A DNA stretch of 64,000 nucleotides from Candidatus Poribacteria bacterium (GTDB taxonomy: Bacteria; Poribacteria; WGA-4E; PCPOR2b). The first letter of the stretch is position 1; each line of letters begins with the position of its first letter. The stretch lies in the NCBI GenBank assembly GCA_965116925.1, contig OZ220744.1:6208955-6272954 (forward strand), given 5' to 3'. The notes beneath the pieces are model-generated. The model ran no database searches. It was not told the DNA's origin and saw nothing but the letters and a program-made list of their open reading frames with translations. This document shows, one piece after another, positions 8,072-54,477 of this stretch. Both the position numbers and the translations under genes were made by a program.

Positions 8072-8075
8072 TTTT

Positions 8076-8183
8076 TATAGTGAATTCAAAAGATAAATAG
8101 ACACTTTCGCTCCCCATGTTTGGTAGGCGCTGTTTCCAACTGCGCCGATTTGGAGTGTTTCATTAATTCTGAGATCTACTATA
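8076..8183 (-). mobile_element. 108-bp MITE-like element, copy A
   Basis: TATAGT...ACTATA termini; reverse complement of the copies at 18210, 19586 and 54340. Confidence 0.85.
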
Positions 8184-18209: not shown

Positions 18210-18314
18210 TACAGTAGATTTTAGAATTAATGAGACACTCCAAATCGGCGCAGTTGGAAACAGCACCTACCAGATGAGGAGCAAAAGTGTCTGTTTATTT
18301 TTTTATTCACTATA
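18210..18314 (+). mobile_element. 108-bp-family MITE, copy B (diverged, 105 bp)
   Basis: TACAGTAGATTTTAGAATTAATG...TTCACTATA, preceded by a second degenerate left end at 18192-18209. Confidence 0.8.
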
Positions 18315-19585: not shown

Positions 19586-19693
19586 TATAGTAGATTTTAG
19601 AATTAATGAGACACTCCAAATCGGCGCAGTTGGAAACAGCGCCTACCAAACATGGGGAGCGAAAGTGTCCCTTTATTTTTAGAATTCACTATA
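19586..19693 (+). mobile_element. 108-bp MITE, copy C
   Basis: TATAGTAGATTTTAGAA...TTTTAGAATTCACTATA with an internal GGCGCAGTTGGAAACAGCGCCTAC. Confidence 0.85.
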
Positions 19694-20236
19694 AACAATT
19701 CGCCAAGTGCGGAGTTTACGATGCTCTTCCGGCGGTGCACCGTTTTGGAGCCAAACAAGCGGTTCCTCTTCTGCTGTACGTTCAGGATTCACCCAAACGA
19801 TGTCTCGGATTGCACCAACACGTTGAGCAGCTTGAGCGAAATACCCCCGGATAGTTTCATCAAGGGAAACAATGTTTTGATCCGTTGCCAGTGCTGCGTC
19901 GAGGAGATGAAGATCTTTTTGCATATCTTCGCTTTCTTCTAGGTTGGTCCCTGTCTGTTTGATTTTGTCGTGAAGTTCTTCATCTGCCAAAGCATTGACA
20001 CGATACACTTTTTTGCGTGCATCCATTGACACCCTCCACCGACGTGCAAATCCGGATCGATGTCTTTTCCATTCGTCCCTAATTTTCGGTGTCATTACAA
20101 CGCTATGACCGAGCGACAACACCTCCTGTAGAAAATCACGACAATTTTTGGCTCGTGGATGGGTTGCTGTCTCACTACCGGCGGCTTGGGCAACATCGGT
20201 ATCAATAACCAATCGTTTTGAATCTGCCTCCCTCAC
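19679..20236 (-). CDS. PIN-domain-like protein
   Basis: Acidic tetrad pattern VIDTDV / DEW / DLHLLDAAL / IVSLDE; ATGA overlap with the ATPase stop. Confidence 0.6.
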   Translation of the reverse strand: MREADSKRLVIDTDVAQAAGSETATHPRAKNCRDFLQEVLSLGHSVVMTPKIRDEWKRHRSGFARRWRVSMDARKKVYRVNALADEELHDKIKQTGTNLEESEDMQKDLHLLDAALATDQNIVSLDETIRGYFAQAAQRVGAIRDIVWVNPERTAEEEPLVWLQNGAPPEEHRKLRTWRIVYSEF

Positions 20237-21543
20237 GATGCCTCCGTCTTCCCAAATGCAATTCTGTCTACGGCGTTAAGATAACGGCTCTGCGCCTTCA
20301 GGTCAACATCGTCAAAGTCCTCGGGCCAATCCCCGTAAGCACCCACCTCGTCCAGATCAGCGGTGTCGATTTTGGTGGCACCATTTTCGCCGCGTGTGAA
20401 CCAGTGCAGCTTCACCAACGCCGGCGAGAGATCTCCTTCGGCAACAAGCGTTTGCACTGCCAGAAGCAGGAGCGAACTATGCGTTTCCGCAACTACACGG
20501 ACTCCCCGTTTCGCGGCATCTGCTAAGACTTGCGCCAACGCTACCTGTGCGCGTGGATGGAGGTGCATCTCCGGCTGTTCCAGATAGACCAACTGCCCCG
20601 GCTTTGCGACAATCAGGGCGACTAAAACGGGCAAAACTTGGGACACACCGAATCCCACATCGGCGATGCTGACCATATTGGTTTCACCAGCTTTGTCACG
20701 GGGGAGACGCCCGACCTGAAGTTCGATGCGGGTATCGTCAATTTTTTTTGTGCCAACCTGCCCTGTCAGTCCAAGTGCATGGAGGGTTTCGGCTAACGTT
20801 TCTAGACGTTTATCCCCCGTCTCTTGCCACTCGTGAATGATACTGGCAGCGTAATGTTCAAATGTGCCGGGATACCGTGGTCCGGTACTGGTCGGTTTGT
20901 AGGTACGTTCTGGGTTGCCGCGTAATCCGGGAAGGTGAATAATGTTGAAAATATGGGACTCAAGATTACTAGTAACGTTTAAGGACGTATGAGCATCTTG
21001 AGATTCAAAACGTAAAAAACATCGTGAACGTCTTACAGTCTCAGTCGTAGGACCCTTGGGAATCACATATTGCTCAACCAATGACTGGATGTCTTCAGGC
21101 GACATCTCAGGATACAGGGTGAAATGATTGGGCTGCCATAATGGAGCCTGCTCTGATTTGTTTTCTCTCGTCATTTCAACAAGCTCAATCCCGCTTTGTC
21201 TCTTTTTGAAAGTTACTGTTGTTAAAAAATAAGAATCAAATCCACGAGTCTCAATCCGAATCTGAAAACGATCTGTCCTCTCCTCGTTGACCAACTTGGA
21301 CAAAAATTGTTCTGCCAACGTAAACTGAACGTTAGGTCCCTCAATCAACAACGGTCCCGGATCGTACGGTGCTTCCAGCGTCTGTTTCAGCATCAATAGC
21401 GGTTGCATGATACTCGATTTCCCGGAGCTATTTGCACCAGCAAGGATTGTCAGCGGACGGATGTCGATTGCACACTCTTCCGCGAGCGACTTGAAACCGC
21501 TCACTGCTATCTTGGTGATGCCATCGACCGTTTCTTTTGACAT
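20233..21543 (-). CDS. ABC-type ATPase (AAA_15/AAA_21-like) with DUF3696-like C-terminus
   Basis: Walker A GANSSGKS, VGFGVSQ signature, Walker B LEQPEMHLHP, ETHS H-loop, C-terminal G.YGDWPEDF. Confidence 0.85.
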   Translation of the reverse strand: MSKETVDGITKIAVSGFKSLAEECAIDIRPLTILAGANSSGKSSIMQPLLMLKQTLEAPYDPGPLLIEGPNVQFTLAEQFLSKLVNEERTDRFQIRIETRGFDSYFLTTVTFKKRQSGIELVEMTRENKSEQAPLWQPNHFTLYPEMSPEDIQSLVEQYVIPKGPTTETVRRSRCFLRFESQDAHTSLNVTSNLESHIFNIIHLPGLRGNPERTYKPTSTGPRYPGTFEHYAASIIHEWQETGDKRLETLAETLHALGLTGQVGTKKIDDTRIELQVGRLPRDKAGETNMVSIADVGFGVSQVLPVLVALIVAKPGQLVYLEQPEMHLHPRAQVALAQVLADAAKRGVRVVAETHSSLLLLAVQTLVAEGDLSPALVKLHWFTRGENGATKIDTADLDEVGAYGDWPEDFDDVDLKAQSRYLNAVDRIAFGKTEAS

Positions 21544-21624: not shown

Positions 21625-22143
21625 TTATTGCTTTGGCATAGTCTGCGATGGTGTGGTCAACCTCTCCTTTGACCTTGTAAGCAATCGTCGAATTGATTCG
21701 GTAATGTCTTCTTTAGGGTGAGAAGCTGAGGCACGACCGGTATTATTAGGATCAAGTTGTATTACTTTGGTAAGGTCTTCAATAGCGCGATCATGCTCAC
21801 CTTTGTGGTAGCAAGCTATGCCACGACGAATATAGGCTTCAACATTATTTGGATCCGCTTCTATCACTGTATTAGTCAATTTTATCACAGTGTCATAGTC
21901 TTCAATTGCTAAGTCATACTCCTCCCGTGAACGATGAACGTCGCCGCTCAATAAATAGACTTGGGAAAGGAGTTCGTTGTTCCCCACTTGCGCTTCGGCG
22001 ATGCTTTGGAGTGCTAACAAAAATGCGACAGTATCACCGTCTTTTTGATATTCTTCTTGAGAGGTTTCGAGATAGGCGACCGCCTCCTCGTAATCAGCAA
22101 GTCTTCCGATTAGGTAATCGCGGTATTTTCTCATTTCTCTCAT
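21625..22143 (-). CDS. TPR protein with addiction-module-antidote-like N-terminus
   Basis: Two TPR motifs (AIEDYD..., AYIRRGIA..KGEHDRAIEDLTKVIQLDPNN). N-terminus YL..RLAD.EEAVAYL....D...FLLAL..IAEAQ. Confidence 0.65.
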   Translation of the reverse strand: MREMRKYRDYLIGRLADYEEAVAYLETSQEEYQKDGDTVAFLLALQSIAEAQVGNNELLSQVYLLSGDVHRSREEYDLAIEDYDTVIKLTNTVIEADPNNVEAYIRRGIACYHKGEHDRAIEDLTKVIQLDPNNTGRASASHPKEDITESIRRLLTRSKERLTTPSQTMPKQ

Positions 22144-22202
22144 TTTGCGGCCCCTTTGTATTCCGCCAGTAGGGTTTCGGCCGTCCAATTTCACTCACTT
22201 CC

Positions 22203-22520: not shown

Positions 22521-23348
22521 CTATTCCTTCAATACTTTTTCCATTTCGGCTATCAGTGCATCCACTTCAGCCGTGTTCACCCCGTCTGTTTTCTGTGGTA
22601 ACGTCGGCTGCTCGACTGAGCCCGTGTTACTGCCCTCCCTCACCCTGTGCCGCCATTCAAACCACTGTCGCATCTCTGGGGGAATGACCGTTTGTCGCCA
22701 CACACGCCGTGTGCCGACTGTGTCGTAACTACCTGAATGCTTGGTGGGGAGTCCTTCGTTGTACGCTATCTTGCTGTGGGCATAACAGTAGCGATATTCA
22801 CCTTCAACCACGGTGTCGCAATATTCGCACGGGTGCCAATTATCTCTCACGTCGCAAAATAGGCAATATCCTTTGTACGCGTGAACGTAATAGCCGTTGC
22901 AATGGTCACACTGTGTGCGCTGATACACAAGACGCCGGTGTTTCACCCGCAAATCCCAACCGGCAAAATCTGCGGTGCGGACAACCCATTCCTTGCCCTG
23001 CGTCCGTGTATGCAGAATCCGCTTGATTTCGGTCAACGTGGCAGTTTCTGGAATGCACACCTTCAACGCTGCTACATCTTGTTCTGCCTTGACCGATTCC
23101 ACTTCCAGATCGGTGGGGTTTATCAGTAAACGCAACGGGCTCGGCTCGCCTTGGGTGTGACCTTTGTTGATACCCGGTATCGGCTTACCCGTTCGCTTTG
23201 ACCGGCAGGACGGTTGCAGGGTCAGAACAAAATCGTCCACTGCCACCGTTTTGTACACTACGTGCGGTGTCCCCATGTTTGGCAGCTTTTGTGCCTTTCC
23301 GACGCTGCCTTTTAACACTTCCTCAATCATAGCGTCAATTGTGCTCAA
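22521..23348 (-). CDS. Hypothetical protein with multiple CxxC motifs
   Basis: TTG start with GGAGG RBS; CDHC, CLFC, CEYC and CYAH motifs. Confidence 0.6.
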   Translation of the reverse strand: MSTIDAMIEEVLKGSVGKAQKLPNMGTPHVVYKTVAVDDFVLTLQPSCRSKRTGKPIPGINKGHTQGEPSPLRLLINPTDLEVESVKAEQDVAALKVCIPETATLTEIKRILHTRTQGKEWVVRTADFAGWDLRVKHRRLVYQRTQCDHCNGYYVHAYKGYCLFCDVRDNWHPCEYCDTVVEGEYRYCYAHSKIAYNEGLPTKHSGSYDTVGTRRVWRQTVIPPEMRQWFEWRHRVREGSNTGSVEQPTLPQKTDGVNTAEVDALIAEMEKVLKE

Positions 23349-40981: not shown

Positions 40982-41120
40982 AGGGCTTACGCAAATTTAG
41001 CATACAAGGGGTAGATTTTTGATTTTTAACCCCCTAAATCCCCCTTATCAGGGGGACTTTGGAAACTTCGCACAGGTCGGAGTTATTGGTAAATGTCCAC
41101 TTATTTTTAGAATTTACTAT
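40982..41120 (+). repeat. Composite intergenic element
   Basis: AGGGCTTACGCA end, CCCCCTAAATCCCCCTTATCAGGGGGACT hairpin, and a MITE-type right end TTTTAGAATTTACTATA. Confidence 0.5.
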
Positions 41121-41122
41121 AA

Positions 41123-54339: not shown

Positions 54340-54447
54340 TATAGTAGATTTTAGAATTAATGGGACACTCCAAATCGGCGCAGTTAGAAACAGCGCCTAC
54401 CAAACATGGGGAGCGAAAGTGTTTATTTATTTTTTGAATTCACTATA
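54340..54447 (+). mobile_element. 108-bp MITE, copy D
   Basis: Near-identical to 19586-19693. Confidence 0.85.
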
Positions 54448-54477
54448 AATATCCTAAACTCACATTGGGGAGATAAC

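Follow-up and report, generated by a model that had tools for sequence, protein, structure and literature searches.

What is the function of a tightly coupled gene pair that encodes an ATPase of the ATP-binding cassette (ABC) type and a short protein with the acidic residues of a PIN nuclease? The question is raised by positions 19679-21543 of a 64,000-nucleotide stretch of the genome of Candidatus Poribacteria bacterium (assembly GCA_965116925.1, contig OZ220744.1, positions 6,208,955 to 6,272,954), which we call the window. Pairs of an ABC ATPase and a small nuclease are a major theme of prokaryotic immunity, and an original prediction, made from the letters of the window, had placed this pair among candidate defence or abortive systems. 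Our analysis suggests that the pair is a self-contained conflict module resembling the systems HEC-03 and Menshen (NsnB-NsnC), and that it probably acts against phages by a mechanism of the abortive-infection type.

Both open reading frames are present on the minus strand where they had been predicted, and the locus is defined by three features:

20233-21543, minus strand: ABC-type ATPase (AAA_15/AAA_21, NsnB/HEC-03 class), 436 residues, ATG start; from the open reading frame, Pfam and PADLOC
19679-20236, minus strand: stand-alone PIN-fold protein, 185 residues; from the open reading frame, an AlphaFold2 model, Foldseek and residue conservation
20233-20245, minus strand: translational coupling site, with GGAGG at 20241-20245, the GTG start of the PIN gene at 20234-20236 and the TGA stop of the ATPase gene at 20233-20235

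The junction had been described as ATGA. The four-nucleotide overlap is real, but the motif reads GTGA: the PIN gene begins with GTG inside the TGA stop of the ATPase gene, and the GGAGG lies 4 nt upstream of this start. The G+C content of both genes is ordinary for the window, and promoter and terminator scans at the locus were uninformative.

Is the pairing itself meaningful? An ATPase gene stands directly upstream of the PIN gene in 20 of the 20 loci first fetched. A wider scan covered 79 loci from Poribacteria, Nostocales and Oscillatoriales Cyanobacteria, the archaea Methanothrix and Methanocella, Latescibacterota, KSB1, Planctomycetota and Caldilinea; the pair is intact in about 74 of them, the remainder being decayed or at contig ends, and most relatives share the same -4 overlap. 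Such recurrence is far beyond chance and bears out the expectation that the two genes are conserved together. All-against-all clustering of the neighbours in the 79 loci found no third gene common across phyla, and the ATPase and the PIN protein form a self-contained two-gene unit. Among 101 Poribacteria genomes, 61 (from 7 of 18 genera) encode the small protein and 40 do not. Within the same genus 4 of 13 genomes lack it, and several of the existing copies are decayed or pseudogenised. In the ATPase tree the family forms one clade (100/93), which very long branches separate from two paralogous ATPases encoded in the genome of the window. The Poribacteria members group as a clade within it (100/100). 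Sequences from Cyanobacteria, archaea, KSB1, Planctomycetota and Latescibacterota are mixed among one another, a sign of transfer across both phyla and domains.

The larger protein matches AAA_21 (E 4e-24) and AAA_15 (2e-23) in Pfam, and NsnB (2.3e-53, full length), HEC-03B (3.4e-40) and PDC-M55A (2e-36) in PADLOC, with AriA (6e-26), GajA, Old and others further down; NCBIfam, PHROGs and PDB sequence searches returned nothing specific. Its segments, judged on an alignment of 72 family members, are as follows:

21412-21438, minus strand: Walker A GANSSGKSS, residues 36-44, invariant or nearly so
20944-21363, minus strand: hypervariable insert, about residues 61-200, proposed sensor region (from pairwise distances)
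20638-20661, minus strand: signature-like D-V-G-F-G-V-S-Q, residues 295-302, with GxG for SGG; G297, G299 and Q302 invariant
20569-20592, minus strand: non-canonical Walker B LVYLEQPE, residues 318-325; E322, Q323, P324 and E325 invariant in 72 of 72
20476-20487, minus strand: H-loop ETHS, residues 353-356, invariant
20236-20343, minus strand: C-terminal tail, residues 401-436, proposed docking site for the PIN protein (from tail-PIN covariation)

The strings GANSSGKSS, D-V-G-x-G-V-S-Q, ETHS and, for Walker B, VY[LI]EQPE.HLHP run invariant through the alignment. The motifs had been called complete, which is accurate for the canonical Walker A and H-loop but not for the other two, since Walker B reads E-Q rather than D-E and the signature GxG rather than SGG, both throughout the family. 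In the invariant Walker B string E322-Q323 thus occupies the position of the D-E dyad of ABC ATPases, and the constancy of this E-Q pair suggests an ATP-bound switch. Residues 401-436 belong to a divergent DUF3696-like tail (Pfam stretch 373-410). DUF3696, which had been named in the original prediction, falls below threshold in the window ATPase itself (E 0.045, and 14.4 bits where 22 are required), but 15 of 35 relatives do match it (best E 7e-5), so that 'DUF3696-like' is a fair label.

Is the second protein a PIN nuclease? Sequence libraries recognise it poorly: PIN_12 (E 0.12) in Pfam and VapC TIGR00028 (0.2) in NCBIfam are below threshold, members of its family give scattered weak matches to PIN_3, PIN_12, NYN, PIN_8 and PIN_10, searches of PDB chains by sequence and profile gave chance matches alone (ArsR repressors, E about 0.07), and a viral fold library gave no significant match. 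An AlphaFold2 model built from 143 diverse relatives has a predicted local distance difference test score (pLDDT) of 95.3 and a predicted template-modelling score (pTM) of 0.90; an earlier run with 23 close homologues (pLDDT 57) was discarded. The top Foldseek matches of the model in the PDB are PIN nucleases, namely HARP RNase P 7og5, VapC 7vwo, Nob1 2lcq, PRORP and PAE2754, with probabilities of 0.9-1.0 (0.97-1.0 for the first four) but E-values of about 0.01 and template-modelling (TM) scores of 0.4-0.6 (0.62, target-normalised, for VapC 7vwo). As modelled, the window protein is a divergent PIN with extra helices. Five codons specify its catalytic-type residues, given here with their conservation over 211 sequences and their position in the model:

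20201-20203, minus strand: D12, 93%, after strand 8-11 (strand 1)
20072-20074, minus strand: E55, 100%, in helix 50-59 after strand 2
19913-19915, minus strand: D108, 100%, at the start of helix 109-116
19865-19867, minus strand: S124, 96%, after strand 121-123 (strand 4)
19859-19861, minus strand: D126, 92%, completing the S124-x-D126 motif

The predicted acidic tetrad (D12, E55, D108, D126) is therefore real and is accompanied by S124; the full set is kept in 161 of the 211 sequences. Since these residues sit at the places expected of a PIN active site, model and conservation agree with the predicted PIN fold. The same sequences share a conserved C-terminal extension (W148-N150-P151, W162-L163, G166-A167). 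In one Poribacteria subclade Asn replaces Asp at position 12, with the remaining catalytic-type residues kept. The family consists of unannotated stand-alone proteins, with 596 matches in 90% clusters and, among 50% representatives, 2200 clusters at E <= 1e-3, of which 665 reach E <= 1e-30; almost all of the best 150 of those clusters listed are 170-190 residues long.

One lead from the defence libraries was set aside. The N-terminus of the window PIN protein matches PDC-M11A in PADLOC (E 6e-5), but this is a resemblance common to PIN domains in general, here to the N-domain of a 508-residue protein without an adjacent ATPase. A PDC-M11A-type protein of this length (E 8e-80; L125, G100:C138:7970-9397) begins with a PIN of canonical type (LLDTNIL), continues into a large C-terminal region that is uncharacterised, and has no ATPase within its 1.5-kb flanks.

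The evolutionary behaviour of the pair is a further line of evidence. In genomes of the same genus it occupies a fixed site, with genes for tetratricopeptide repeat (TPR) proteins on one side and an alcohol dehydrogenase gene on the other. Identity between genomes at this site is 95% for the alcohol dehydrogenase, 74-82% for the ATPase and 52-81% for the PIN protein; the ATPase and the PIN protein evolve much faster than the genes that flank them. Divergence of the ATPase is concentrated in the insert, where the mean pairwise distance reaches 0.59 (0.17-0.20 in the cores), and residues 121-180 share no more than 26-53% identity even among syntenic loci of the same genus whose flanking dehydrogenase is 95% identical. 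The distance between tails (last 36 residues) co-varies with the distance between PIN proteins, with a partial r of 0.62 when the rest of the ATPase is controlled and of -0.07 to 0.27 for its other segments, the sequence pairs behind these values not being independent. Finally, the PIN tree gathers the Asn-type PIN proteins into one clade (support 99), whereas on the ATPase tree the Asn/Asp label changes six times, at least four of these changes being forced by well-supported branches. The conflict between the trees implies that ATPase lineages have repeatedly traded the PIN gene along with the ATPase tail.

Which known systems does the pair resemble? The two-gene defence design of ABC ATPase and PIN protein was known before, having been described and tested under the name HEC-03 (Hma-embedded candidate 03, an ABC ATPase with a VapC-like PIN), in which defence needs both genes and induction is toxic (Payne et al. 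2024, bioRxiv 10.1101/2024.01.29.577857). The novelty implied for the window pair is to that extent lost. In both HEC-03 and the window pair, the gene for an ABC ATPase of about 430 residues overlaps by 4 nt the next gene, which encodes a PIN protein of about 170-185 residues; the HEC-03-type pairs of Poribacteria have an identical layout. They also share the ATPase class, with its LEQPE Walker B, GxG signature and DUF3696-type tail, and the D-E-D-D residues of the PIN protein. The window pair differs in not being embedded in an Hma system. Its ATPase scores 136.5 bits on HEC-03B, in two stretches, where a true member from the same genome scores 353.6 over the full length; it is 28% identical (E 3e-32) to the true HEC-03-type ATPase of that genome, and, though homologous, it lies outside the HEC-03 clade, from which long branches set it apart. 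We conclude from these sequence comparisons that the pair follows the HEC-03 design and belongs to the HEC-03/NsnB ATPase class, but appears to constitute a separate family.

Related pairs are common in the phylum. HEC-03-type PIN proteins (PADLOC models PDLC04147, HEC-03A, for the PIN protein and PDLC04148, HEC-03B, for the ATPase) occur in 76 of 101 Poribacteria genomes, in ATPase-then-PIN order with a 4-nt overlap and sometimes in tandem triplets. Three such pairs stand in direct tandem at L133 (G079:C1:5336500-5344500), with ATPases of 450, 442 and 435 residues and PIN proteins of about 170-180 residues, and the PIN-match spacing of about 1.85 kb recurs in several other Poribacteria genomes. 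The genome of the window holds a true HEC-03-type ATPase at L100 (G000:C1:2118737-2120056; HEC-03B 1e-105, DUF3696 3.6e-10, NsnB 197 bits, Walker B LEQPE). It has no PIN gene alongside, and the downstream region carries sequence derived, as in the window, from a miniature inverted-repeat transposable element (MITE), so its PIN partner may have been lost. A further pair of this genome, at L109 (G000:C1:2708782-2710500), joins a 434-residue ATPase with Walker B LLQQPE, that is Q-Q (L109:1495-2799, plus strand), by a 4-nt overlap to a 144-residue PIN protein (L109:2796-3230, plus strand; Pfam PIN, E 4e-4). The window ATPase is 27% identical to this one, and BLAST could not align the PIN proteins. 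At L134 (G000:C1:3532500-3538500) a 392-residue ATPase of the AAA_15/21 type, a 671-residue weakly PDC-M11A-like protein and small PIN-like reading frames are clustered, which may be another ATPase-linked conflict module of the same genome.

The second comparison is Menshen, also attributed to Millman et al. 2022, which comprises NsnA (a ParB-DUF262 sensor), NsnB (an ABC ATPase with DUF3696) and NsnC (an inactive PIN-like N-domain with a nuclease) (Li et al. 2025, PMC12065111). According to the same study NsnB has an E-N Walker B and a GxG signature, the PIN-like domain of NsnC is held in AlphaFold 3 models by a clamp of two NsnB tails, and catalytic residues are absent from all 35 Menshen inactive-PIN (inPIN) families (PMC12065111). 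Its mining started from DUF262 seeds only (PMC12065111), so that pairs without NsnA lay beyond its scope. Like Menshen, the window locus pairs an NsnB-like ATPase, whose Walker B is degenerate, whose signature is GxG and whose helical tail resembles DUF3696, with an immediately downstream protein that has a PIN fold at its N-terminus; the partners are likewise polymorphic and exchangeable, and the modelled tail clamp fits the covariation of tail and PIN. Unlike in Menshen, no NsnA gene (ParB-DUF262 with ParBDB) lies upstream, where a TPR protein and a 275-residue protein are encoded instead; the original prediction had already remarked on the missing DUF262 partner, and the locus neighbours and the 79 loci agree with it. 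Unlike NsnC, moreover, the window PIN stands alone, without a C-terminal effector, and keeps its catalytic residues. We did not assign the pair to Menshen on the strength of its best PADLOC match, because the NsnB model is unspecific and finds matches in 14 of 14 control genomes. By a looser analogy, PARIS (AriA-AriB) and Septu (PtuA-PtuB) also have an AAA_15/AAA_21 ABC ATPase oligomer that holds and controls a small nuclease from the next gene; the window pair differs in its effector, a PIN rather than the TOPRIM of AriB or the HNH of PtuB, and in its ATPase inserts and tail.

How could such a pair work? An ATPase-gated PIN nuclease, as first proposed, is still the best reading, by analogy with HEC-03 and the modelled NsnB-NsnC complex. 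Dimers or tetramers of the ATPase would use their C-terminal DUF3696-like tails to hold the PIN protein inactive, while a phage-derived protein or nucleic acid would be recognised by the hypervariable insert. Binding of ATP, which the E-Q Walker B (Q323) would make slow to turn over, could then change the conformation of the complex and activate or release the PIN protein, which would cut RNA (tRNA, rRNA or mRNA) and thereby stop the growth of the infected cell. The scheme as a whole is inferred by analogy.

Several observations weigh against an anti-phage module of this kind. Defence-island context is lacking in the window and at most loci of other phyla. There, in 17 loci (16 from named phyla other than Poribacteria and one labelled 'uncultured bacterium'), the 117 neighbours are mostly housekeeping genes, such as those for ribosomal protein S2, elongation factor Ts (EF-Ts), leucyl-tRNA synthetase (LeuRS) and glycosyltransferases, and a type IIG restriction-modification system adjoins the pair in only 3 of the 17. 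The family was not found on the plasmids, phages and IMG/VR contigs searched. Nuclease activity may not be universal, given the sequences of the Asn-type subclade, and the covariation of tail and PIN could come from linkage of adjacent DNA instead of protein contact. The tie to HEC-03 is loose on the PIN side as well: the window PIN has no HEC-03A match at E <= 1, a single one of 143 family members matches (E 0.0047), and hhalign against HEC-03-type PIN proteins is weak (E 0.009, N-terminal 55 columns only). With this mismatch and the low HEC-03B score, PADLOC would not call the locus; a clean hit to a known system, raised beforehand as something that would remove the novelty, is thus not seen, although the design is the known one of HEC-03. 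It is thus homology and evolutionary behaviour, not island context, that carry the defence reading.

In a rival account the pair is a selfish addiction module akin to toxin-antitoxin systems: a VapC-like toxin PIN would be neutralised by the ATPase, acting as antitoxin or chaperone, with no sensing of phages, and the module would persist since its loss is harmful. VapC toxins share the PIN fold and acidic active site and are, among others, the closest folds, 7vwo of M. tuberculosis having the best TM-score by target length. The tight coupling and co-inheritance of the genes, their patchy distribution with decayed copies, the mostly non-defence context and the toxicity of induced HEC-03 all agree with addiction. 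VapBC, however, has a small DNA-binding antitoxin, VapB, which is missing here; the partner is instead a large ATPase encoded first, and the window PIN has extra helices and a conserved C-terminal extension that set it apart from VapC. A hypervariable insert and rapid exchange of partners are more typical of arms-race immunity, and HEC-03, the nearest tested relative, defends against phages and requires both genes for it. We regard the selfish module as a real possibility, albeit an unlikely one.

It is far less credible that the pair is a degenerate or minimal Menshen, a non-functional remnant with an inPIN-like adaptor that lacks effector domain and NsnA sensor. NsnB is indeed the best PADLOC match of the ATPase, the degenerate Walker B and GxG signature are as in NsnB, and one PIN subclade has Asn at the first catalytic position. 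That match, however, comes from a model that finds matches in every control genome, on which the true HEC-03 ATPase outscores that of the window. The PIN proteins mostly keep the full catalytic set that no Menshen inPIN family has, more than 70 loci across 7 phyla retain an intact two-gene layout, nowhere with NsnA, and the stand-alone proteins of about 180 residues make up some 2200 clusters at 50% identity. Housekeeping RNA processing by a HARP-like protein-only RNase P or a Nob1-like rRNA maturase with an ATPase cofactor, suggested by the presence of both enzymes among the top fold matches and by the translation genes that often adjoin the pair in other phyla, is the least plausible of all, since the gene is missing from so many genomes of the phylum and the genus and pseudogenised in others, is scattered across domains through horizontal transfer and evolves far faster than its flanks, and since the fold scores point to a generic PIN rather than a specific HARP relationship.

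Returning to the anti-phage reading, we raise with considerable doubt a broader idea that would connect it to Menshen. The family might be the NsnA-independent form of a single superfamily of ABC ATPases with DUF3696 tails and PIN partners, in which the clamped PIN is still an active effector, close to the ancestral state of the inactive-PIN adaptor of Menshen. In Poribacteria the ATPase C-tail and the PIN would together be an exchangeable cassette, whose Asp and Asn lineages were re-assorted at least four times, and the Asn form would be attenuated or non-catalytic, a transition from effector to adaptor.

A TPR protein is encoded on the same strand 81 nt upstream of the pair in the window (21625-22194, minus strand), and in genomes of the same genus the TPR gene or its repeat number varies at this position. 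Further upstream lies a Cys-rich protein of 275 residues (22521-23348, minus strand), 86-87% conserved in the genus and without a match in Pfam, PADLOC or the PDB. Both are lineage-specific and outside the module conserved across phyla. A zinc alcohol dehydrogenase, a PhyH dioxygenase and an operon of the xanthine-dehydrogenase type complete the neighbourhood. The original prediction had seen restriction-modification and toxin-antitoxin debris here, for which Pfam, PADLOC and PDB searches of the neighbours give no support. The downstream end of the pair is shaped by a mobile element:

19586-19695, no strand assigned: MITE copy that supplies the last five or so codons and the stop of the PIN gene (blastn)

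The element belongs to a family of about 110 bp with copies in the window at 54340-54449, 8074-8183 and 18213-18302, 91-95% identical by blastn, and a partial copy at 41101-41122. The affected C-terminus of the PIN protein is variable in the family and of low confidence in the model, so the insertion was probably harmless.

The pair extends a known kind of bacterial immunity and reveals no new principle. New here are the hypervariable insert of the ATPase, the covariation of its tail with the PIN, and the Asp and Asn PIN lineages swapped among ATPases at least four times. The family forms a widespread branch, overlooked by Pfam and PADLOC as present-day detectors, that is abundant in sponge symbionts and also found in Cyanobacteria and methanogenic archaea, and a model of it would improve counts of defence systems in environmental genomes. 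Its E-Q Walker B, its candidate sensor in the insert, its cassettes of co-varying tail and PIN and its Asp/Asn lineages are natural experiments, through which the pair bears on the way in which the ATPase of HEC-03 and Menshen perceives infection and controls its nuclease.

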